From positions 32,054,001-32,118,000 of the forward strand of contig OZ004609.1 of NCBI GenBank assembly GCA_963924565.1: DNA of 64,000 bases, written 5' to 3'. Of this stretch, positions 2,384-55,800 are shown piece after piece. The position numbers and the translations under genes were made by a program. A model generated the notes under the pieces. That model made no database searches and was not told where the DNA came from. It saw nothing but the letters and a program-made list of their open reading frames with translations. Numbering within the stretch: position 1 is the first letter of the stretch; each line of letters starts with the position of its first letter. The DNA is from Ascidiella aspersa. Its lineage: Eukaryota.

Positions 2384-2589
2384 ATGACATCCAGCAGAGC
2401 TGCTCGTGGGGATGAGCCCAGTTTGTACCGCTTCGCCGATATGTACCAGTCTTCTGAGTTTGCTAAAACTTTGTTCGACGAAGTTGCCCAAATCTCTGAC
2501 GTGTGGTACGTTATAACCGGTTCGTTGCTGGCCATCGTTGCCGTCTTCAGCATAATCTGCAACACCTTGACATTGTGTTTTTACCCGAG
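2384..2589 (+). CDS. Opsin exon 1 (N-terminus, TM1)
   Basis: ATG at 2384; encodes ...QISDVWYVITGSLLAIVAVFSIICNTLTLCFYP; donor AG|GTAAGT after 2589, phase 2. Confidence 0.85.
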
Positions 2590-3427
2590 GTAAGTGTGGT
2601 GACGTTTAACGACCAAATTGTAGTGGGAAAGGGAGATTTTTTCATTACAGTCGTAGCTTATATACCAGGCTGTATGTCACCCTTTGTGTAATTCCATGTA
2701 TTGTACGAGCTTTCGTTGTGTCATTCCCCCCGACGAAGGCGACCTGCATAAGTTGCCGAAACGTTGGTAAAGAATTACAATTACCAGAGGAGCTGTTTTT
2801 TATTTTAACTATCACGCAATGTGTCACCTCTGTTCAATTAATTCTAGGGCCGAATTGTATTCGTTTTTCCCAGGCTTCAACAAACGTTTTAAATAAAAGG
2901 CAAGATAACTATAAAGAAGGTCGCAGGCATGATGCAGCATTTTGTGTCACACTTTATAAGCAAACATGAAAAAATAATTATAAAACATTCAGTGAGCTTT
3001 ATACAATTGTCGTTTAGTTAAAATGACTTTAAAATTTGGATTAGATTTGCATCTGACAAATATTTCCGACAATAAACTATATTTCAGCCACATTTAGGAA
3101 ATATGCCACGGACCGGAAAAAAAACTTAGCCATGGGTATAAGTTTCATAGTCCCTGGTTTGAGTCATTGGCTCACTGACCCTTGGACTGGGAATTAACCG
3201 ATTGTTTTGTAAAATAGTAATATGTTAAAATTTACTTAAGTCCACTTTTTTTGTCAATCGCTTGTGTGCTCTAATTGTAGTTCTAAAGTCTAGTCTGGGG
3301 TTCACCAAAAATGCTACTTTGTACCACGGCATGTATCGTTCTTCAGTCAAAGAATTTGAAATAATACAATTTGGCCGGAACGATTTGTATTTTTCAGTAG
3401 GAAAAGTATGGGATAGTGTTAAAACGA

Positions 3428-3506
<79 letters not shown>

Positions 3507-6500
3507 AGCTTATTTAGCCTACCATTTGCATTATTAGAAGAAGAATTTTCGATTTTACTTAAATTGATTGTTTATAAATTGAATGTAATTTGATTTCAAA
3601 TTCTAGTTTAAATTCTGTTTTGTAATCTTATTTGAAAAAAATGAATTGAACTAATTTTAAATCAAATCTAATTTAAAAAAGCCAAAATAAAAATAGTTGT
3701 CCAAGTGTGTGTTTTATCTTTGTAATGTGTTTTGCCATTCTGTTTTTTTCTGGGTTCCTTTTCGAAAAGTAATGTTTATATTCAACAGACAACGCTTCGT
3801 TTCAGAATATACAGCACGCGACGAAAACGCGTTATCAATCTGCCCGTGATTTCACTTACCATTTCCAATCTCGGAATAAACCTCTCGAATTTTCCGTTCA
3901 TGATTTGGTCGAGCGCCTACAGGGGCTGGCAGTTCAGCGCGACAGGTAAGCAGGGTTGCGAACAGGGCTGCAGAGTCGGTTAAAAATAATCCGAGTCCGA
4001 CTCCGGCCAAAAAAATAAACCCGGGTCCGATTCCAGAGTCCCGAGTCCGACTCCGGTCAAATGTGCGATTTCCAAGTCCGAACCTGTCGACTCTACAACC
4101 TGTATTCCGACAATTTACGTAACTAAAATAACGTCGATATTCAGCAATCCATAGAGGTGTCGTATAAAAATTCATTCACCTACAAATGGTTGGAAAAGAT
4201 TCCACCATATGTTATTCCATCTTTACACTTTCCAGTAGGCGGCCAAATCAGTTTAAAATTTTGGTACTGCCCATTCGCATGTCGAGATTGGGACTCGGGA
4301 AGTTTTACGTGGTCTTACTCGAGTGCCGAGTCCGACTCCAGCAAAACGAACCGACTCATCGAGTCCCGAGTCCGTTTGCTTAGCTGGAGTCGGACTCGGC
4401 GCTCGAGTAAAACCACGTAAAGCTACTCAAGTCCCGAGTCCGGCGTGCGCATGCACAGTACCAAACTTTAAAACTGGTAACGCTGCCAATCGTAAATTGT
4501 AAAGGCGGAATAGCACATGGTAGAATATTTTCCAACCATGTTTTGCTGATAGAATATTTTCCAACCATGTTTTGCTGATCGGACTCAGGTTCCTTTTTTT
4601 AAGTTGGACTCGAGCTCATTTTTTGGTTGTTGTTGCCGGACTCATGTTTTCAACCGACTCCGGCAGATATAAGGCGCTTTTCTCACGTTTGAGGATGAAA
4701 CACGCATGCAGTCATGGAAATCGATTCTCCGTTTCAATTTTCCTTTAATATTGAGTCGCGAGTCCGCTTTGGCAAACAACAGGACCTGCTTTCTTTCAGT
4801 GTGCAGAATAGCCGGGTGCCTGGGCGGAACCTTCGCCTTCATGCAGATCGGAACTTTAGCTCTGCTTGTGCACCAAAGATATCGAGCAACTACCAGCATG
4901 ATGCCAATCAAAGTACGCACTCGTTACCAGGTGCTCACCATTGGAGGAGTGTGGCTAGCTTCGTAAGTGTTTTGTAGTGAAATTTGTAATGACTCAAGTC
5001 ATCGACTTCGTTTCTTACAAGTCCCTGTTTTCAAATGACCTGACCTGACTTATGTCGTTTTGGTAAAATAGCTTCACTCGTCTTAAGGTTTTTAAACAAA
5101 GGCCTTGGCTTGGACTTAAATCATCAAGTGAAATGACTTGGGTTGAAATTACGTGGTTTTATATAACTTTTTGTTCTAAAATTGAGCTATTCATCTCAAT
5201 TGTTGCACGTAACACAATCAGATTGCTACAAGTTGGGTTTTCCTATATTTTTTAGTTGACTTATTGCTTCTAATCGGGCGAGTTAACCATTTTAAAGGTT
5301 CATCGTTTAATTTTGGTATTAGTAATTTGATTTGAAGATGAATTGCTTTAATAATGGCTTGACTGGGAATTGACTTGTTATTTTTTTGAAAAGACTTGCT
5401 TAAATAATTTCAAAATAACTTGTTTACAACACTGAAAATTCTAAACTAAGTAATTCAAGTCCAATCATTTTTAAACTGACATTGATCTTATTAAGTATTT
5501 TGCAAAAATAATGTCAAGTCGTTAAGGCCTTTAATGCGTTAACCCGATTAATCAAGTAGGCCTACAATGGATTATAAACTAAACTTAAAAGATTAAAAGC
5601 GTTATATTATATTTTATCATTATTTTATTATTTTTTTTAGATTTTCGTTGGCTGTTCTGCCGCTTTTTGGAGTGAGCAGCTTCGTTCTGGACGGCCTAAT
5701 GGTCAGCTGCACCTTCAACTACCTCGAAACCACACTTTTCAACCTTATATACATCGGATGCATAATCTTACTAGGATTTATCGGTAGGTTTAGGTAATTT
5801 ATTTGGTAAGCTCAGACCTGTTGTTTTAAATAGGCGAGCCCGCTGTCAGCAGCGGTTCTGTCAATAGAATTAGAACTTATTTTTTCACTTCTAAGAGTTG
5901 CATGATTTTGACGAATTTCCATTAACCCCTTTCAATACTGTAAAATAAGGACTTTAAATCAGGGAAGCGAAAAAATCGGCACCGGATATTATGACCCGAT
6001 TTTGTGCCAACTCCGAAACTGAACCGAATATTGTAAAAGCACTTAAACCTTGGCCGAACCCGTCAAAAATTCGGTTCACTGCAGCATGACTTAGCAACGA
6101 ATATACAAAGATGTTCTACATAAACGTTGACCAAATGTTTAAGCTGGTTAACTATGTAGTAAGTATGATAGTCTATACATGTATAGATACACAGTTTTAG
6201 GCTGACGCAAGTTAGTTTTATTGAACCCCAATCGAATATTTATTAACCCATGTTTAAATAAGTTGAACTGAAACTAAACCGGAGCGTTTAAATTTCCCTG
6301 AAATGAAGTCGGAACTGAACCGGATTCTAACAAATCTGAAGTCAAATGGTTCGACACCCTGCTTTTTTCATCTTTCCGTGCATATTATTAGCAGTGTTGT
6401 AAAGACTTGAGGCAATTACTTGACTCAAGTGAACTTAAGTCACTTCATGTTACATAAATGAAAAAAAAATAATTAACAATTTGCTTTGTTTTTGAGGTTT

Positions 6501-8917
6501 ATTTGGCGAAAAAAATGCTTAGAACAGATCAGAACAGGTTCATTTATTTTGTAAGTTCAACATTCAGTTTAAAAGCTAATTACGTGACGTTTTTGACTTG
6601 TTGTAGCAATGACTTGCTGATTTGGGTACCTAAAGACTTTGAATAGGACTGGACTTACGTTATGTTGTTTTGCATATCACTTGACTAGGACTTGAGTCAA
6701 TTAAACATGACCTGTTTGCAACACTGCGCATTTACCACTCGATCGGGTAAAAAAAACGATGCAAGGTACAGTTTAAGACTTTTATTGAAACATTCAGCAT
6801 ACCCAAATTTACCGTTCCAGTTCCCTTGGCGCTGATATCCTTCTGGTTCGGACGGATCTTTCGCCTGAGCAGGCTGAGTGGCTTGCAAATGCGTGGACCT
6901 GCCGTGATAAGGAGCAAGTTCAGGCAGAGGCAGTTCAGACTGGCCGCCACCGCCGCCCGAAATATCGCATGCTTTTGCTTCAGCTGGACGCCTTACTGCA
7001 TCATCACTATAATCGCCGCTTGTGGACAGGTAAGGTTCATACATACCGCAAATGCACAACCGAACACTATCTTGATTTAAAAGCATCGGTAGCACGTTAA
7101 TCGCATGCACCTCTGAGCCTGTTTCCAAGGACATGGATGTCTGGTTTATATAAAACAAACCATTATCTTCAATGAATCACTGTAGCCTACACCTATTTGC
7201 CATATGATGATTCAACTAGCGCAGACATATAGTTTCAAACAAAACTTCGACACTACATCATCATAAAGTTGTCTAAAAGTTTTTTTGTAGTATGTGAATC
7301 CGATGTTAATCCAATCGTTTTTCGCACCTTTCAATCCAAACGTTATAGTTGTTTTCTGAAATGTCAACCAATCGTTTTAGTATTTTGTCCACATATCACC
7401 GATTGTTACAGTTGTATTCTAAAATGCGAATCGAATCGTTTTAGTATTTTGTTCAACATACTAAACCAGTCGTTTCAGTAGTTTGTTGTCATGTCAATCC
7501 AATCGTTTTAGTATTTTGTCCAAAATATCGATCCGATCGTTACAGTTCTTTTCTCAAATACGAATTCAATCGTTTTAGTATTTTGTCCAACGTATCAAAC
7601 CGATGGGTTTTTTGCTGATAATTTAATTTAATTGTGGTAGTATTTTGTCGAACATATCAAACCATTACAGTTGTTTCCTGGTTATCAATTCAATCCATTT
7701 AATTGTTTTTCAGCACATCAATCCAGTCGTTGCAAACGTGGCCGTCATCACAGCCAAATGCTCCACAGCGCTGACCGCCATCTTGTATGTGACGAGCCTT
7801 CCGGAATTTTCGCGCTTGTTCAAAGTCGCAGTGCCTTTGGAAAAGCCTTCAACCAGTAAGCAACATGTTCGATACTTGGCATTATGTTCCGGTACCGATG
7901 GACAAAGATCGTTGCTATGCATAGGGAAGCAAAATATAAATAAAATTATAACGTTTAAAGGTAATTTTTTTCAGGTTCTTATTCCAAGATTTCCTTTAGC
8001 GTTACGACGTTTACTAACCTTCAGTTGTTAACTTACCATTTGTTGATAAATTTACCTTTTTTTTAGGTAAATTCACCTTTTTAAAGACAAGGTCTTTTAG
8101 GTTTCCAAAATTTGCTTTAGCATTACGGATTTTAGTTACCTTCAGTCGTTTATCTGCCCTTTTGTAGTGTATTTACATTTCAAGGTAAAAATCACTGCGT
8201 TGAATCGCAAATCACGGCTGAGATTATTATATTAATTTGTATCAGATCGGAAACCGATGCCACATGGTATCGAAAAAGAGCGATATTGAGGTATTGGCTC
8301 CGATCGGATCGGGTATTATCAGACATCTCTTGATAACATTTAGTTTGAAATAAGCTATTGTTGCCAGGCATAAAATATAACGGAGTGTTGCTCTTCCGGC
8401 AACACGCCGCCAGCACAATGAACGTAAAAACTGACGTTCTAATGCCCATTAGCTATCGCGCGCTCTTACACCAATGAGCGTTGGTGCGAGTTTTTAATCG
8501 CACGAATTGTTGCTTTTTGATTTATAAGGAATCTGTTTTACATGTAACGTCAGTATCCTGATGAAGACGTTCTGTATAGCACGTCGAAACGTCGATCTAT
8601 TATATATTCTGCTGGAAGAGCAACACTCCGTTATATATAGTTTGAAGTTTAAAAATATACTCTCAGAATTCCTCCGTGAAACGTTATCACAGCTCATTAT
8701 AAAAAGGCGTATAAATCTATTAAAACCATTTACCACGTTCAGTAAAGCTTAGATAGTTGTGAACTTAAATTGAAGTCCTAAATAAAGTCATTGTAAACGT
8801 AGTTCTGCTAAGGGTTTTCAATAACATTCCACCCAACTTATTTATCCAGTGCGAAGCTTCGCGACAACTAAAAGATCTTCTGAAACTGAACGACACTACT
8901 GTTCTACCGCTCTCTAG
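2384..8917 (+). CDS. Divergent rhabdomeric-type (Gq/melanopsin-like) opsin, 7-TM GPCR, 7 coding exons, 356 aa
   Basis: Exons 2384-2589, 3806-3945, 4800-4962, 5641-5783, 6821-7029, 7714-7855 and 8850-8917 are all GT-AG with compatible phases (2,1,2,1,0,1) and total 1071 nt. Opsin motifs: TM1 Asn, WQF..C110, RY, ECL2 PLFG..LDG..SCTFNY, TM6 FSWTPY, TM7 AK(296), helix-8 SLPEF. Segments resemble squid rhodopsin/melanopsin as recalled (NFPFM, GGTFAFM, CIILLGF.P, RLA). Confidence 0.9.
2723..2801 (+). ncRNA. Hammerhead-like motif, family B (CCGACGA core variant), with 3' tail
   Basis: CCGACGA-A-GGCGACCT(gcat)AAGTTGCC-GAAA-CG-TT-gg followed by the tail aattacaattaccagaggagctgtttt; homologue at 47290-47403. 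Confidence 0.55.
3431..3498. repeat. (AC)34 microsatellite in opsin intron 1
   Basis: Direct reading. Confidence 0.98.
3806..3945 (+). CDS. Opsin exon 2 (ICL1, TM2, ECL1)
   Basis: Acceptor tttcag; encodes IYSTRRKRVINLPVISLTISNLGINLSNFPFMIWSSAYRGWQFSAT; donor G|GTAAGC. Confidence 0.9.
3963..4666. mobile_element. Palindromic foldback element in opsin intron 2
   Basis: Terminal inverted gagtcggtt.aaaa / tttt.aaccgactc; many gagtccgactcc units; internal ~160-bp inverted arms ~4183-4342 / ~4383-4542; 29-bp tandem duplication at 4521-4578. Confidence 0.75.
4800..4962 (+). CDS. Opsin exon 3 (TM3, ICL2, start of TM4)
   Basis: Acceptor ttctttcag; encodes VCRIAGCLGGTFAFMQIGTLALLVHQRY...GGVWLA; donor TC|GTAAGT. 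Confidence 0.9.
5641..5783 (+). CDS. Opsin exon 4 (end of TM4, ECL2, start of TM5); absent from the ORF track
   Basis: Acceptor ttttttttag; encodes FSLAVLPLFGVSSFVLDGLMVSCTFNYLETTLFNLIYIGCIILLGFI; donor G|GTAGGT. Confidence 0.92.
5960..6361. mobile_element. MITE-like element with CAGGG..CCCTG ends and aaccg repeats
   Basis: Ends cagggaagcgaa / ttcgacaccctg; repeated gaaccg/aaaccg. Confidence 0.5.
6392..6726. mobile_element. MITE family rich in GACTT/AAGTC motifs; related copies at ~4975-5434 and ~59660-59803
   Basis: TIRs cagtgttgtaaa / tttgcaacactg; the same end (tttacaacactg) at 5423-5434; gacttaagtc clusters in all three. Confidence 0.6.
6821..7029 (+). CDS. Opsin exon 5 (end of TM5, ICL3, TM6)
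   Basis: Acceptor gttccag; encodes VPLALISFWFGRIF...QFRLAATAARNIACFCFSWTPYCIITIIAACGQ; donor CAG|GTAAGG. Confidence 0.92.
7300..7700. repeat. Degenerate minisatellite with ~65-67-bp period (dimer of ~33-bp subunits) in opsin intron 5
   Basis: aatcgttttagtattttgt recurs at 7370, 7434, 7501 and 7568, with a degenerate copy near 7631. Confidence 0.85.
7714..7855 (+). CDS. Opsin exon 6 (TM7 with Schiff-base Lys, helix 8)
   Basis: Acceptor gtttttcag; encodes HINPVVANVAVITAKCSTALTAILYVTSLPEFSRLFKV...; Lys codon AAA at 7756-7758; donor A|GTAAGC after 7855. Confidence 0.88.
8375..8636 (+). mobile_element. Penelope-like pseudo-LTR fragment (family A) with a hammerhead motif and 27-bp inverted ends
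   Basis: Inverted repeat 8375-8401/8610-8636 (1 mismatch); CCAAT at 8471; TTTATAA at 8521; hammerhead core 8558-8593; second copy at 39815-40045 on minus. Confidence 0.7.
8551..8611 (+). ncRNA. Minimal type-I hammerhead ribozyme motif (family A)
   Basis: atc-CTGATGA-A-GACGT(tctgtatagc)ACGTC-GAAA-CG-TC-gat: intact core, palindromic ACGT in place of helix III, GUC site after 8593. Confidence 0.75.
8850..8917 (+). CDS. Opsin probable terminal exon 7 (Ser/Thr-rich tail ending STAL)
   Basis: Acceptor ttatttatccag; the phase-1 join gives MRSFATTKRSSETERHYCSTAL*; AATAAA at 9117-9122 downstream. Confidence 0.6.
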
Positions 8918-9122: not shown

Positions 9123-10671
9123 CATGTATAGGTCTATTGTTGAACGGTGTACTGGTTATATAAACTTTATGCATTAGGATTATAAATACATAAATATATT
9201 AAAAAACTAATAAATATTAGAAAAACTAAGAGATGACAACTACTGTTTAACCACGAAAAAATAACTTTTTTTAACAAAACAAATTAATTGTTTTTGTTTG
9301 AATATTTGCAATATGTTATGATCATTAATTATTTTTTATTTCCAAGCGTTTAAAAAGATAACTGTGAATTTGTTTTGGTGTTATATAGTGGTCAACCGAC
9401 GCGTAAAAAGCGTTCCCCGTCAGAAATACTTTCGCCTGCTTGTATACAGATATTTAAACTATACTGTTTGATTTGGTGTTATTTAAGACTATAGTTTGGT
9501 TAAGTGAACAAACCATCCACAAATTTTGTATTTATTTTGTGTACAAATCAATCAAAACTAATGTGCAGACAATATTTAATTAGAATTGGTTTGTCTACGA
9601 TTATTTTTTTAAATTGCGGCTCTTCAAAAATTGCAAGCTTATTAAAAAGATAAAAAGTCGACTTTATTCCAAAACTAAAACCTAATTAAAATGTCGTTAC
9701 TCAAAGTTGGAAGCATTTTTCTGTTCGAGGAACCACTATAGACCAAACCTCTCTGCATCGACACACCTCGCCGTCTTTTCGGTGTACTTTACGATGAGCG
9801 AACGCCCTAAAAATCCCACGTAATTACGAACCAGAATGTGGACTGTTTGCCAGAAGAAAATAGCTAAACAAGTGCTCAGGCAAACATATTAAACAGAAGT
9901 TAGCTTCAATATAAGCTAAATCCTGCTCAAGGTAGAGTCATTTGCAGTCTTTGCTCAATGATATATACTCTGTTTGATACAAGGTTTAGTTTCAGTGTAA
10001 GTATAAGAATGTTGATTTGGTTTGTAATTAACATCTGGTGGTTAGCGATCCTTATCACAGGTTTAGTTTACACTTTGAACAACTTCTGTCAATACTTTCC
10101 CCTAGTTTCAACGAAACTGAAAAGCTATAATGAGATCTACAACGTAATAAGCTCGAAAATGTTTTTGACTACCGATCTTGAGCATTACGTTACAACGCCA
10201 AATAAAAAGTCAACAACGGCAGAAGAAAAAAGTAGAAGAAATGACGCAAGGTACATCTGGAACAACTCGCAGTTTTCTTTGGTTCCGGTGACGCCGAAAT
10301 AACGACACAAAATCAAACCTCACGAGATCTAAACTCAGAAGAAACAAATCAACAAAAGAAGGCACATTCGTTGTTAAACATTCGCACATTTTGCTTCGGT
10401 GAAAATGTTCTCTTAAGGTTATACGTTCTGCGATGCTGGTTATCTTTGCTTGCAACAATTTCCAGCTGCTACCTGTTGGTTTATTTTAACACTTTACACT
10501 CAACTAACATTCAATTTTCCTGCCACCAAAGGAAAACTAGTTTAACCTGCATTTATACAAACTATACGTAACTTATGTGGTTTGGGTTCAATGTGTAACG
10601 TACTTTGTCCAGACGCTTTCTGTAGCAGTGCCAATCTTTTTAATTTTTCGTGACATTTTGTGCTTAAATAA

Positions 10672-11247
10672 ACGTTCACTGATCTCAAACTAATCAAAAG
10701 GTTCGAACGTGCATCAGGAAATCATACCGACTGGAAAAATGTGCATGGTGTTATAAGGCATATCAAAAAACAAACTGGGAATAACTACAAAACATTTCTC
10801 AAGCTGTACGACTACAAAATTTTCTGGAAAGCTTTAGCAGCCTCGGATCTAGCTTTCTTATGCTTCTACAAAAAAGTGTTGAATGGAAACTTAACCAAAG
10901 TATCTACCATGTTAGAAATATCTACATATTTTAAAGATCTAGATTCGAAAATTAAAGAAATTAACCGAAAGTGTCAGATAAAAATAGAACTTTATATACC
11001 ATCTATGATTGATGAAATCGGGGAAGCGAATCTATTGGTTTTAATCAACTATCTTAAAAGTTTGGACAAAATGTACCAAGGCCGAAAGTCAGAAGAAGAT
11101 AGCCCTTCTTCTAATGTACTAACAATTATCAATTATACCATCGATGTGTTAAACAAACTTTTACAATTGTCTACAAACCAAGAAAGTCAACAAACGCACA
11201 GAACGAAACTCAACAAGACGGAAAACACGAAAATCCTCCAAACGTAA
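10672..11247 (+). pseudogene. Unassigned 576-nt open frame, possibly an exon of a decayed gene spanning ~9690-11340
   Basis: 191 stop-free codons in very AT-rich DNA giving a helical-looking protein. Neighbouring stretches (9691-9867, ~10100-10330, ~11283-11340) read as protein-like with in-frame stops or frameshifts. No family recognised. Confidence 0.35.
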
Positions 11248-12143: not shown

Positions 12144-12441
12144 CAGTGGTTCCCAAACTTTTTTGGCTCGCGGCACACTAAAAATATCTTGAATATTTCG
12201 CGGCACACTTTTAGCAGAACAGCAATAGAGTAATTTTGCAATCGCCCAAGAAACTATACGGAAATGTTTCAAAATGATTAATTTGTAATGAATAGTTCGT
12301 GTTCAAGTCTAAAATGCTTGCGCGTATGCTTATTGGTAAAACAAATACTTTATTTTCCGAAATTACAAAAAGTTTCGCTGCACACTTGGCAATCTCTCAA
12401 GGCACACTAGTGTGCCGCGGCACACAGTTTGGGAATCATTG
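12144..12441 (+). mobile_element. hAT-type MITE
   Basis: TIRs cagtggttcccaaact / agtttgggaatcattg; 8-bp TSD agttaagt/agttaact; repeated subterminal gcggcacac. Confidence 0.85.
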
Positions 12442-15689: not shown

Positions 15690-18600
15690 CTGAAAAGGTA
15701 AATGAAGTTTTTCACAGGCTCCAAATAGCGTAAATTACACTTGTTTGTGTAAAACTTCCGGGTATCGCTAGTAGTCCAACAACAAAATGGTATAAATAAA
15801 CAAAACAGTGGCATTTGTGGACAGAGCTCAAACAAAAGAAACAGATAAATAAATAAGTTTTTTTTAGACCAAAGCATAAAATTTCCTATCTTTTTTTAGC
15901 AATTAACATTCATAAATTGCCCTGTTAACTAAGGACGAACAGCAGTTATTAGATTCACATATGTAAGTATCTCAAGTCTTTACCTATCGGACGAGCTGAA
16001 TTTGCAAAATTGACTTTCTTCGTTGCTTTTGGGGTTGTTGTGGTTGTAGGGGGGGTTGGTTTCGGGGTGGGTTTGGGGGTCTTCTTCGGTATGCCAGGGG
16101 TGGGTTTCACTGTTGCCTTGTCATGATGGTGAACGGTTTCATGGCGAACCTTGATGCGCATGCGCATTGCGTTTTCGCACGTCATCTTGGTCAAGTCGGA
16201 AAATGCTGGAAGGCGAAAAAAAATTGTTATTCGAGCACACGCCCAGGCAGTTTTAAGGTCCCGTAGTAACACATAGTGGTTATGCTCTAAAGTTGTAGGC
16301 GTTTCCTTCCCACTGTACAACGATATTTAACAATTCATCGCGTTTAGAAATTTGGTGACGTGAATTTGTCAGTTTTCTTTTTTAAATCCATTTTCACGAA
16401 GCGTCGCTTGGCGTACTCGGAAGTATTACTGAGAAAAGGTTGTTATAATGCGTGTAACGAAGTTTAAAAACTTACAATAACAATCATGCAGTTAAAAGTG
16501 ATGTATGTGATAGCTTCAACAATCAAGGGAAATTAAAAAAAAATTGATCGCTCAAAACGTGTTTCCCGGTCGCGAAGGGTCGCTGCTTTAAACCTCTCAC
16601 TAGAATATTATCAAAATGCATCGTAATAAAGATATTTACAAGATGCAAAGACTTACCCAGGTAATAGTAGTAATGGCCGGGCAGGAAAATAAAGCCCAGG
16701 GGATTTGGACTCCGTTTCTGAAACTTGGTGGTCAGCTTTCGAGTCTGTGTTGGGTTGTTGCAATCGAAGATCTTGCGAAATTCTGAACGAGAACATGAAG
16801 TTAGTTTACTCTGTATTTTTTTTTTGTTTTTTTAGCCATGTGAGAATTACTCCCAACCCAAGCCTTTAGAGCTACGCAGCGCATGGTTCATTTTCCAGGC
16901 CACCCCAACGCTCATATAGTTCCCCTTTTAGTTGTATTTTCGCGGTCTGGCTTTCCAACTGGCTTATTCCAATCGGTAAGGGCCTTTTTTCTCATTCAGC
17001 AAACATACTTAGGTTTTTTGGCGATCTAAAGTCGCGATATGACGATACCAAAGACCCCGAAAAGAAAAAAACGAAAATCCAGTCGTGCCCACCGTCGGGC
17101 ACAATGGCCACAGCTGGAAGCGTAGACCACCCAGCGATTTCATACAAAAAATACGCTAAGGCAACCAAGAGGCGTTTGGCGCTGTAAATGGCCCACCTAC
17201 AGCGCGACCCTGTATTATCTAGGCCTACCACAATACGCAATTCCCCGACTGTTGCTAACGCCAATATGAGGAACCCGCACCATTCAACTCACTAGGGCCG
17301 TGCGCGACACAATAGCTTGGGGTTCGTTTGGAAAACCGGGGTCTTTCAAGCAGTGTGACTGGGTGAAAATGTGGATTGAGTAGCCGCTGTAACAACAGCA
17401 AAACTGCCAACACATTTGAATAGTAAATTGAGTGAGCTGAATAGCGACTAATTCGCACACCCTTCTAACTTCGAGAGTGTAATGTTAGAACTCGTATTTA
17501 TTACCCTTTGAACGCGTGCTAGGATATAGCTATGAAAGAACCAGCATACGTGCTTAGTGTTTATTGAATACCGGCACTATACTAGAGGCCAGCCAGTCGC
17601 CTATACTTATCTGGAATTATTGAAAAACCGAGCACAGCAAATGGTCCAACGATGAGCGCAAGAAAAGGAATGCGCTGTGGTATAGTGTAATTGGAAAAAG
17701 GAGGGCGCTCTTATCAGTTTCACCTTGGTGTTGGACCGTAGGCACGTAAGCACTTTCGACAGCAAGCTGTTTCACGGACTCCCTATACGCTGACTATGTC
17801 AAGTTTGGACAAGCCTTTGTTGTATAGCCTACTTGAACTAGCAACGAGTATCGAACTGTTTTTTTTGATTTAAGAAACCGAGTTTCCCGCGATACCTTAA
17901 AATTTAAGTTCAACTTTATAGACCAACTTAGAATGGGCTGAGTAATGGCAGACCTGTGTATTCGACCTTAAATATAAGAGTAAAAGATATTCCCAAGTCG
18001 AACAAAGGAAAAATAGCTATGACAAAAAACGTTATTCAAGTATAGAGCACCATAAAATCCGTGTTTACGGGTTCCAAACTTGAACTCTTTTTCGTTTTAT
18101 AGAAAAATGTTTAACAAAATACGGACCTATCGTTTGGCTTCGGTAGTGCGCAACGGATTCAGTACATAACGCACATTTTGGTGGATCCTATGTCGCACCC
18201 ACGCCCGTTTAAAAAATAAAGACCGGTTTAAAAGAAACTTACCATGTTTCTCGCCCAACGTGCACTTGTAAAAGTTCTCCTCGCTCACATTGAATATGGC
18301 GAAGGTTAGCCTCTGTGCCTCGGGCTTGTCCTTGTCGTACTGCGGACAATAGAGGTCCATGTACTCGTTGCTGTGCACTTCAAGGTGGTAGATCTCGCCG
18401 TATGAAAACCTGCAACACACACAACACGCGAAGTTAATACTTGTGGCAGTTGTGCTTGACCTGGCCGTTTTTTTTCTATGAATTTGGAAAATGGTTTGAC
18501 TTTTCAGGCTTTGACAGATCTTTTGTGAGATCGTGCATGCTACTTTTGCATTTTTTTGTTGGGGACATCCAGCTTTTATTGGAAATACGTTCACTGAGTT

Positions 18601-52550: not shown

Positions 52551-52861
52551 TCACCGCGTTGTCACTTTGAGAGTCCTCGTCATCAATGACGTCACGAGCG
52601 CCGCAACCAACGTCATCAGGAGCGTGATGCCACCGGATGGCGCCTCGCGACACCCCCCACCCCCAGGCCCTTTGGGGGAGGGTGACGGCTTGTTCAGTCT
52701 CAGAGGTGGGTGAACCACCTTGTTTGGCCGCGTTAGTTTGTGGTATTTTGTTGTTATTTTTCTTGTTGTTGCTGTTGTTTTTTCGGTTGTGGTTTTTGTC
52801 GGCTTAGGTTTTGTTGTTGTCCATCGCGGTAGGGCAACGGTCTTGGGCCTTTTTTGGTCTT
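52551..52861 (-). CDS. Efna: Ephrin-A paralogue 2, terminal exon (mucin-like stalk and GPI-like signal)
   Basis: Encodes EDQKRPK...TTTKPKPTKTTTEKTT...GGGGCREAPSGGITLLMTLVAALVTSLMTRTLKVTTR*; acceptor ttttatcgcag. Confidence 0.88.
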
Positions 52862-55800
52862 CTGCGATAAAAAGAAAAAATAGTTTTTTTTTTAGTTGAA
52901 ACACATTTGCTTGCGGCATTTTAGAAGCGTTTTATAAACCAGCTGCTTTCTCTAAAGCCATTGAAATATAGACATTAAACTAAAAGATTTTTTTTAATTA
53001 TTTTTTTAAACGAAACATTAAAAAACTACAACATTAGACAATTCCGAATTCTAAAACCATTAAATTGTATGTAACATACACTGAACGATTTTTTTTGGAA
53101 ATAAGTCAAGTCAAACAAACAGAACTAACACGCTAGTTCGTAACACGTTTGAACTTACTTAACCCGGCAAAACGGGGTTGCTCGAAAGCGTGTGTCACAA
53201 GCGCAATTCGTCTTACTACGGTGTCGTACAACCCACAGCAGTGGCAATGTAAGCAAACGTCGCATTGAATTGTAAAACGAGAAGGACTTAACGCCTTGTC
53301 GACGTATCGCCTTTCTAACGGCTTTGAATGCAGCGGCCAAATGTTGTTGGGTCGCACGCTGTGCTGTGTTTAGACTTTGCTCGCCGTTTCAAACAACGAT
53401 AGAAAGCACTGCTTTTAAGCCTCTTAAGGTCAAATTACACGGCCGATTTGAAAAGGGCCGAGCTTGGTAATTTCGGCCACGCTTTCGTGTACTTTTCCAA
53501 CCCTAGGTCAGTTCAAGCGTGCCCTAAATGAAACCGACTGTATTTATTGCCCTGTTTCTGACATATACAGGGATATAATGGAAATTTAGCCGAGGTCGTG
53601 AGTTCATACCTCACCCAGTCTAGATTTGGTTTAGTCCCCTTAAGGCTCCCCGACCCCGTGTACCATAATTGTGCGTGTGCCGTTGTTAATTGTTCGACAT
53701 AAGAAGATGGTTCCCAATACTTTTTTAGCCACATACCCTTTAAACATTATTGAGAGGACCTAATTTTTTACCCCATTTAAGATTTTTTCATTGACCCTAT
53801 TCAAGAGTTTTACGAAACTATATAGGCATACATTTATAGAAATTAGCAAACTTTAAATGCGAATTTGTGGTCGAATTAAATATAAAATGAAACATTTAAG
53901 AATTATTACTTTATTTAAGAAATATTTTGTCCATTTCTTAGTTCACTAGCGGATCGCTAAACCATTTCATGAACCCTTTTGAGGCTACGTTGACTCCTGG
54001 GCAATATCACTACTGTATGCACATTTGTTTATGTGTTTTGCTGTCTCTGAAATGTGAGACATGGTACTAATACTGAATGAGGCAAAGAACCTTGTAAACT
54101 GCTCCCTTCTTTAGGTGAGACGTCCACACACCTCTTACACGGCCTACTATATGTGTGACTGTGTGGTCGTGTTTTCGTGGTGCGCCTTGTAGTTTTGACG
54201 TAACGCGACACCCTGGCCGTAAACAACCTGTGCGATAGACGTCTGGGGGGCGGGGCGGTTTGCCACCAAGTCGGTTTCGTAAACGAAAGTCTCACACTAC
54301 TTTAAAACAGCGACAAATGAGATAAAGCTTTGCCAATTATTTCCACGCGAGGTCAGAAACACGCTATAACTTGTATTGGCCTTTTTGCGGATTGCAATTT
54401 AATCGTAGTCGTATTTCTGCAATGACGCTTGTTTGAATTGGAAATTAACTTTTAGGCCAACGCCTGTTTTATGCGAATGACAGCAAAGCAATGGGCTTTG
54501 ACATCAAGCTAATGGCACCAGTCATGGGCTTTAAAATTTGTCGTGAAAAACAAGGTTTCATTTTCTTTTGAGACTTTTAAACCGCGTTTACGACCTGCTG
54601 TAAGCTGGAATTTGGATATTTTTTGCCGTGCGTTGATTGAAATATTCGATTTTTGCGGTTATACACACATTTCAAGGTAAATTCGCGACTGTTGCGTGGA
54701 GTTATAACGCAAATATTATGCTGGTTAATTGATTGATTGGCTCAGCATTTAAACCTAATATTTATGGATTGCTTTTTCAGTCAAATGTCAAACCATTTTA
54801 GAATCGTCACATAATGCTTCGTTCCTTTAACAAAAGCACACCTCCTATAACCTTTGTAATGAAGAAGCCTGAAACGTTTCAGCTTACCTCGACATTTGAC
54901 GACGATCCTTATTCTGGTCGAGTTCTTCATGCAGCCTGCCTTGTTGCGAAGTTCAGAAACGGCTGCAAAAAAAAGAAAAACATTCATCACATCAGCAAAT
55001 TCGAAACCGATTAACAAGTTTACTCTTTTATTTTATGAAAGCAAATTTCCTACAAGCCAAGTCACACAAACTACATACAATAAAATCTAAAATCTCAAAG
55101 TTGAAAGTCTAAATTACATAACACCATTGCGGAAAAGAGGACAGTGTTCTAATTTAAACACGTTTATCTGTATTGAATGCGAGTTTCGTTTTGTTAAACA
55201 CGCGGGATTGCAAATCATAAGAAAGCCTTACGATCTTCGGAATAGCATTGTCGAGACAATTTCCCCGCTCTGTTCGCCCTGTATTGGGTTAAGTTAAATT
55301 AATTTAAAACAAGCTAAAGTATAACCCGGTGTTTCTCTATTGTGATCTTAAGCCCTCTGGGTGAATAAATCACCGGGTTAACCAAACTGTTATTTCAGGA
55401 ACCAATTGCGGGAGCTGTTTCTGATGCACGTGTTTTATGCCGAATTGCACCGTGTCGCTTGCTTTAAAATGCAAATGGCGCCACCGCTTCGGCAAAGTTC
55501 CCATTAACCAGTAGCGTGCTGGGAAATGCAAGGCATCGAATTCGCACGGGCGCTCGCAGGTTGCACTATCTTACCGTTGCGATTAATCGGAACGGTGGTC
55601 TGCTCTCGCGATGCGCAGAACCACCACTGCACAGCGTTCGCACGCCCAACGAAGTGTGGGATTGTCAGGCTATTTCAAATTTTTTACAAGGACTCTGGTT
55701 ATTTTTATGGAGTGTGAACACCGTTACTAGAATGTGGAAATTTGTTACAATTTGGTTCTCACTGACTATGGCTCCAAAGAGAGATTTTCCCAGACCGAGC

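Follow-up and report, generated by a model that had tools for sequence, protein, structure and literature searches.

We detected an intact, divergent opsin gene in the genome of the ascidian Ascidiella aspersa, on the forward strand at positions 2384–7855 of a 64,000-nucleotide stretch of contig OZ004609.1 (assembly GCA_963924565.1, positions 32,054,001 to 32,118,000; hereafter the window). Phylogenetic placement, sequence similarity and residues at key sites indicate that this gene, the focal opsin, very probably belongs to the rhabdomeric opsin (r-opsin) lineage. Its likely origin is a chordate rhabdomeric (melanopsin-class) opsin, and its product is likely a bistable non-visual light receptor.

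Gene structure and conserved residues

The gene has six exons whose spliced frame is open, with no stop and no frameshift. All five introns are GT–AG (phases 2, 1, 2, 1 and 0), and hydropathy and alignment predict seven transmembrane (TM) helices in the product. Sites are numbered as in bovine rhodopsin, anchored on aligned ciliary opsins (c-opsins). In the following features, IL and EL denote intracellular and extracellular loops.

2384–2589, +: exon 1, with the start codon, N-terminus and TM1; phase-2 donor
3806–3945, +: exon 2, with IL1 carrying a 2-residue insertion (common to the relatives described below), TM2 and EL1; phase-1 donor
4800–4962, +: exon 3, with TM3 (C117 at site 110, A120 at site 113, QRY for D/ERY), IL2 and the first half of TM4
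5641–5783, +: exon 4, with the remainder of TM4, EL2 (D187 at site 181, positions 5690–5692; C193 at site 187) and the first half of TM5
6821–7029, +: exon 5, with the remainder of TM5, a full-length IL3 and TM6; both ends are those of a relative's exon, P0005
7714–7855, +: exon 6, with TM7, the retinal lysine K302 at site 296 (codon 7756–7758) and helix 8; phase-1 donor candidate at 7856
7714–7855, +: exon 6 motifs, TAILY where NPxxY and LPEF where HPK(F/Y) would be expected
8850–8917, +: candidate exon 7, a predicted Ser/Thr-rich tail with stop, giving 356 amino acids

An earlier note, made from the sequence alone, had ended the gene at 7855, which coincides with a real donor candidate. Depth jumps and loose read ends begin at 7865, so the DNA from there on is a high-copy repeat. 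To judge from the sequence, there is likely a seventh exon at 8850–8917 and a product of 356 amino acids; our pyrimidine filter for acceptors did not list its acceptor at 8849. The alternative, reading exon 6 through to a stop at 8031, gives 392 amino acids but crosses repeat DNA.

The spliced product contains the opsin motifs that the note had pointed to: QISDVWY..G before TM1, NFPFM, GGTFAFMQIGTLA, RLA and SLPEF, as well as CIILLGF.P, found as CIILLGFIVP across intron 4. The EL2 motif given as LDG..SCTFNY is present as LDGLMVSCTFNY, with three residues in the gap rather than two, and S.P.F, present as SLPEF, is less of an r-opsin sign than supposed, being partly common to tunicate opsin3/Nut proteins (DPE). 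In the alignment, K296, C110, C187, W265, R135 and Y306 are kept, and all 30 other rows have their lysine in the column of K302. The altered sites are 113 (Ala), 181 (Asp), 134 (Gln), 302–303 (Thr-Ala) and 310–312 (Leu-Pro-Glu). Taken singly, the exons fall below the cut-off of Pfam 7tm_1 (exon 2, E 0.017). Sequence variants comprised no exonic indels among 24 listed rows (two tables of 12 each) and, in a second individual, five silent and four codon-changing exon substitutions among those listed, numbers that say little on selection.

A family of full-length relatives

We searched 1.84 billion representative proteins with exon 5, a single exon because exon alignments built on scaffold opsins were mostly misaligned or would rank orthologues too low, and obtained two matches. 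One of them, P0005 (ENA), consists of one exon plus read-through of its flanks: aligned with the full-length P0007 it covers 72 residues exactly, starting at the TM5 proline and ending one residue past the TM6 glycine, which are the ends of exon 5, and its flanking letters would, judged from protein only, fit a phase-1 acceptor and a phase-0 donor. A profile of the two matches recovered 8 full-length proteins among 1376 candidates, or 16 with cluster members, none of them named (P0007–P0022, from the Logan and JGI collections). Identity to the focal protein was 32–34% in the four relatives compared, and all nine scored against it reached 169–178 bits, whereas no other opsin exceeded 99. Because nine independent relatives match at this level, and a fish melanopsin-type protein at 98 bits, the focal protein is not a chance reading frame.

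The focal opsin and its relatives have in common the IL1 insertion, Asp-Gly at 181–182 and Ala303, and the best match of relative P0013 in the host genome is the focal gene, a reciprocal best hit. The relatives pass Pfam 7tm_1 at 124–132 bits. Unlike the focal opsin, they keep NAxxY and HPx (HPQ or HPR at 310–312 in all four tabulated, where the focal opsin has LPE) and carry EKY, Asp117 and Glu or Lys at 94. In P0007–P0014, Asp117 and Glu/Lys94 stand beside Asp181 with Ala or Ser at 113, extra charges near the Schiff base that might shift the counterion or tune the spectrum. Kinship and collection source lead us to guess that the relatives are genes of pelagic tunicates. Their DNA was found in neither genome nor viral contigs, and the protein collections searched held no named tunicate orthologue of the focal opsin.

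Other searches added less. P0004, a 171-amino-acid 'hypothetical protein', is an opsin fragment whose TM6 stretch is 54% identical to exon 5; it was rejected as a family member at 51–55 bits against the family and left out of the trees. Exon 4 gave no accepted homologue in a word-indexed search (0 of 17 candidates passed) and no match of 0.9 or more in the ESM Atlas, where P0005 met arthropod ultraviolet/blue opsin fragments at 0.90–0.92, a lead only. Foldseek with an AlphaFold model of P0013 (pLDDT, its predicted local confidence score, 67.6) listed squid and spider proteins first by E-value, which we do not count as evidence; its TM-scores were discarded as a guide to class, as they do not separate r- from c-opsins. 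Six focal-protein motifs were absent from a list of Ciona G-protein-coupled receptors, which is weak evidence.

Similarity to rhabdomeric opsins

A single metagenome scan supplied the reference opsins (116 loci, 28 near-complete open reading frames (ORFs), more by exon stitching). We labelled them ourselves (melanopsin, arthropsin, neuropsin-like, cnidarian, pteropsin), as presumed from motifs rather than taken from database names. Against 31 references, phmmer scored the focal protein at 98 bits with the melanopsin-type protein, 56–87 with arthropod r-opsins, 25–64 with cnidarian opsins, 38 with a neuropsin-like protein and 23–27 with c-opsins; a separate comparison gave 24 bits for the host's opsin3. 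The family profile ranks opsin classes in the same order. A profile of 13 relatives matched five squid and spider sequences in the PDB at 142–154 bits and bovine rhodopsin at no more than 103; the 30 matches of a separate PDB search included no tetraopsin. Exons 3, 4 and 5 singly each placed squid or spider rhodopsin first.

Among named proteins the best matches by sequence, profile and tree were OPN4, squid rhodopsin and jumping spider Rh1. With canonical r-opsins the focal opsin has in common K296, the C110–C187 pair, P311 and an acid at 181 with a non-acid at 113 (here Asp and Ala, a pattern not unique to r-opsins), and its relatives keep HP(Q/R)F. His-Pro at 310–311 occurs in 7 of 7 r-opsins, in all four tabulated relatives and in 0 of 19 other opsins. 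The focal opsin differs from canonical r-opsins in its identity of only about 23–26%, Ala rather than Tyr at 113, Asp181, QRY, TAxxY, LPE, the IL1 insertion, a short tail and introns 3–5, which are unmatched in the r-opsin loci that could be read. The Ciona opsin3/Nut-like proteins (RGR/retinochrome type) resemble it in K296 and P311 and in some trees are attracted to the family, but have a short IL3 and a different EL2 and introns. The ciliary Ci-opsin1/2 share the opsin fold and K296 at 16% identity but have E113, an NRQ motif and other introns; the focal opsin lacks the c-opsin NxQ tripeptide and does not group with c-opsins.

Phylogenetic placement

Trees were built under LG+C20 with posterior mean site frequencies (PMSF), after removal of near-duplicates, fragments, two amine/peptide-receptor outgroups and, in some sets, opsin3. 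Without opsin3 the family was recovered at 100/100, and the branch uniting it with r-opsins at 96/95 (26 rows) and 100/99 (26 rows, more c-opsins). On its own, the focal protein grouped within r-opsins in a set of 34 rows, at 99 in the Shimodaira–Hasegawa-like approximate likelihood ratio test (SH-aLRT). In the best trees the family stands with the r-opsins. The approximately unbiased (AU) test rejected a grouping with neuropsin-type opsins (p-AU 0.025) and did not reject other placements; a tetraopsin grouping, with p-AU from 0.025 to 0.25 by set and model, never appeared in free trees without opsin3. We regard an r-opsin as the best, though not the only statistically allowed, placement. The r-opsin part of the note's proposal stands on this support, while its melanopsin part is not established, as no sister group is supported: melanopsin was not recovered as sister of the family and was not rejected either (p 0.26 and 0.36, one melanopsin sampled), and positions as sister to all sampled r-opsins and inside them are 0.02 log-likelihood units apart. 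We lean, by a modest degree, towards strict melanopsin orthology.

Several results weigh against an r-opsin. With opsin3 in the tree the r-opsin support collapses, and the AU test rejects neither the family with opsin3 (p 0.53) nor the family with all tetraopsins (p 0.12). Under LG+F+G4, tetraopsin, c-opsin and cnidarian placements are 14–16 log-likelihood units worse, at p-AU 0.09–0.15, and with opsin3 present under the simpler model they reach 0.08–0.25; across both simpler-model tests, placements outside r-opsins lie 9–16 units below the r-opsin one. The trees contain one melanopsin only and no full-length peropsin, vertebrate RGR, retinochrome, Go-opsin, xenopsin, or amphioxus or echinoderm r-opsin. 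The HPK site is eroded to LPE, near the DPE of opsin3, and the focal protein matches 4 of 16 diagnostic columns of r-opsins, 0 of 6 of tetraopsins, 0 of 8 of c-opsins and 1 of 15 of cnidarian opsins. In the single-exon PDB searches, where E-values were weak (0.003–0.05), exon 2 met non-opsin receptors first and exon 6 met nothing. Finally, a single RNA run, read to about 6 in 100 parts, had zero depth at exons 1 and 4 and repeat-like partial reads elsewhere, and a sequencing-run search listed no RNA run carrying the locus.

Introns

The earlier note had argued for OPN4 from the introns. Its positions and phases are right: intron 1, of phase 2, comes just after TM1, intron 2, of phase 1, lies in the codon that precedes the TM3 cysteine, and no intron follows the RY motif. 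The inference to OPN4 holds less well. The OPN4 counterparts of introns 1 and 2 are presumptive. Intron 2 is not specific to r-opsins, because the neuropsin-like gene at L075:980–1790 is interrupted at the same codon and in the same phase, by an apparent GC–AG intron, and r-opsins and tetraopsins may have inherited this site from a common ancestor. Neither of the two readable fish melanopsin introns (L103) is common to the focal gene: a phase-2 intron lies 4 bases before the site of intron 5, and the intron after HPKY is absent. None of the five focal introns is common to the host's opsin3 or c-opsin, and the focal gene lacks the RRH/RGR-type intron pattern seen in opsin3.

Alternative explanations

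The gene might be an r-opsin derivative that binds retinal as a photoisomerase, a retinal store or a light-independent sensor rather than a Gq receptor, which we find somewhat unlikely. It has lost the acid at 134 (Gln), Asn-Pro at 302–303 (Thr-Ala) and the His and Lys at 310 and 312, its relatives have Lys at 135 and Ala at 303, and its branch is long (1.2 changes per column). Yet the full-length IL3, RLA, R135, W265 and Y306 are kept where tunicate opsin3 has them shortened or changed, the candidate tail is rich in Ser/Thr, and a sea-cucumber r-opsin with a partial HxK is described in the text of PMC13403383 as a functional blue pigment on which light responses depend. Descent from a non-canonical r-opsin, the paralogue of amphioxus, echinoderms and lophotrochozoans, instead of the melanopsin line is rather unlikely in our view. 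It would accord with the equal fit of a position outside all sampled r-opsins, the unsupported melanopsin sister and the presence of such a paralogue in cephalochordates, as reported in the text of Ramirez 2016 (PMC5521729); set against this, a melanopsin-type protein is among the two best non-family matches, and melanopsin sisterhood was not rejected.

A fast-evolving RGR/peropsin/Nut tetraopsin, drawn to r-opsins by artefact, is very unlikely. The family and opsin3 join in the free tree (SH-aLRT 97), a union not rejected; Asp181, P311-E312 and, in the relatives, K135 recur in opsin3/Nut; and the RGR/peropsin/Nut branch is barely sampled. Once the family is removed, however, opsin3 rejoins the tetraopsins (SH-aLRT 98.5), a sign of long-branch attraction, and it is opsin3, with the longest branch (2.2–3.4), that moves to the family and not the reverse. 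The bit scores (24 for opsin3 versus 98), the lack of a common intron or tetraopsin column, and EL2 and IL3, which differ by eye in four RGR/Nut-like Ciona sequences, also speak against it. Contamination or a decaying pseudogene is hardly credible. The missing RNA reads, the lack of a named tunicate orthologue and two amino-acid changes in exon 5 of the second individual would suit it, but the gene sits within a 39-Mb contig, its introns contain high-copy repeats of the host itself, the locus turns up again in three further DNA runs labelled as the same species (X1, X2 and X7), and the frame is open over six exons with conserved relatives.

The host, its other opsins and the neighbourhood

The note's guess of a tunicate host is borne out by the other opsins of the genome (308.6 Mb in 75 contigs searched). 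A TM7 pattern recovered one opsin among five matches, a c-opsin on contig C4 whose exon has 93% identity to a Ciona intestinalis opsin, with 85% for C. savignyi and 69% for Clavelina, and which is the Ci-opsin1 orthologue. A second pattern recovered two opsin3-like (RGR-like) copies on contig C1, so labelled by likeness to a Ciona sequence. These two (L164 and L167, at 31.78 and 31.95 Mb) are near-identical, inverted and about 170 kb apart, either a recent duplication or an uncollapsed haplotype. The focal gene is neither of these opsins. Searches with exons 4 and 5 and with the relatives found no paralogue in the host genome, and as far as they reach the gene is single-copy. Tandem C4 matches to P0013 proved to be non-opsin receptors, and a 7tm_1 scan, with 57 matches listed, gave no opsin among ORFs from 30 loci.

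High-copy repeats at 2720–2800, 3963–4460, 5020–5430 and 12144–12438, in introns and flanks and with length variants between individuals, are likely non-autonomous transposons. Downstream of the opsin, single-copy DNA holds AT-rich ORFs at 9904–10299 (132 amino acids) and 10672–11244 (191 amino acids), both on the forward strand, for which a Pfam scan gave no significant match. An ephrin exon lies at 18211–18435 on the reverse strand (PF00812, E 8e-9), the one such exon in the window by tblastn, and Pro/Thr-rich ORFs at 15958–16326 and 52554–52931, both reverse and without Pfam match, may be ephrin-type tails. About 17 kb before the window is a nuclear-receptor zinc finger (zf-C4; L045:2928–3170, reverse) with a His/Gln-rich ORF upstream, presumably ROR-like by its motif. 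The neighbours noticed are thus a nuclear receptor and ephrin; WAPL and LDB3, which flank OPN4 in the order WAPL(KIAA0261)–OPN4–LDB3 in the text of PMC1514791, were not searched for.

Proposed function and significance

By analogy with other opsins, the focal opsin likely forms a retinal pigment. From opsin biochemistry, 11-cis-retinal would bind K302 as a protonated Schiff base and, because site 113 is Ala, D187 would serve as counterion, the role of site 181 in r-opsins. Asp stands at 181 in the focal protein and all four tabulated relatives, and the text of PMC3522658 describes the counterion of melanopsins at 181 when 113 is neutral. Light would switch the protein to a stable all-trans state, and it would signal via Gq and phospholipase C in adult or extra-ocellar photoreceptors, the weakest step. 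R135, W265, Y306, the long IL3 and the RLA stretch of TM6 are kept, but QRY, TAxxY and LPE suggest that coupling is weakened or altered; we give normal coupling to Gq an even chance.

Tunicates have apparently lost their melanopsins according to the text of Borges 2012 (PMC3528684), with a caveat on negative searches. For Ciona, the text of PMC2396169 gives three opsins and three opsin-like genes, four of which appear RGR/Nut-like by eye and two others of which have c-opsin best hits; that of PMC10963430 gives three opsins; and the Ciona cell is empty in the first r-opsin row of Table S1 (row 18) of a 2026 survey (PMC13403383). No tunicate r-opsin appears in the literature searched, including the available text of PMC5521729, PMC5648526, PMC9776813, PMC13170672, PMC10770211, PMC1514791, PMC13746493, PMC9368030 and bioRxiv 2025.09.11.675609, though tree figures, subscription papers and bioRxiv supplements may hold one. 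Microvillar photoreceptors are described in ascidian adult siphon spots and salp cerebral eyes in the text of Lamb 2009 (PMC2781864), and these are candidate cells for the focal opsin. It is possible, though doubtful, that tunicates retained a rhabdomeric opsin as a fast-evolving melanopsin orthologue, in this ascidian and in pelagic tunicates (salp, doliolid or pyrosome), and that the microvillar photoreceptors of salp eyes and ascidian siphon eyespots have in it their missing pigment.

Vertebrates and tunicates are sister groups, and a retained tunicate r-opsin would bridge the gap between amphioxus and vertebrate melanopsin. It would also provide a marker for tunicate microvillar photoreceptors and make their homology to melanopsin ganglion cells testable, and the family supplies naturally occurring variants of counterion and switch motifs.

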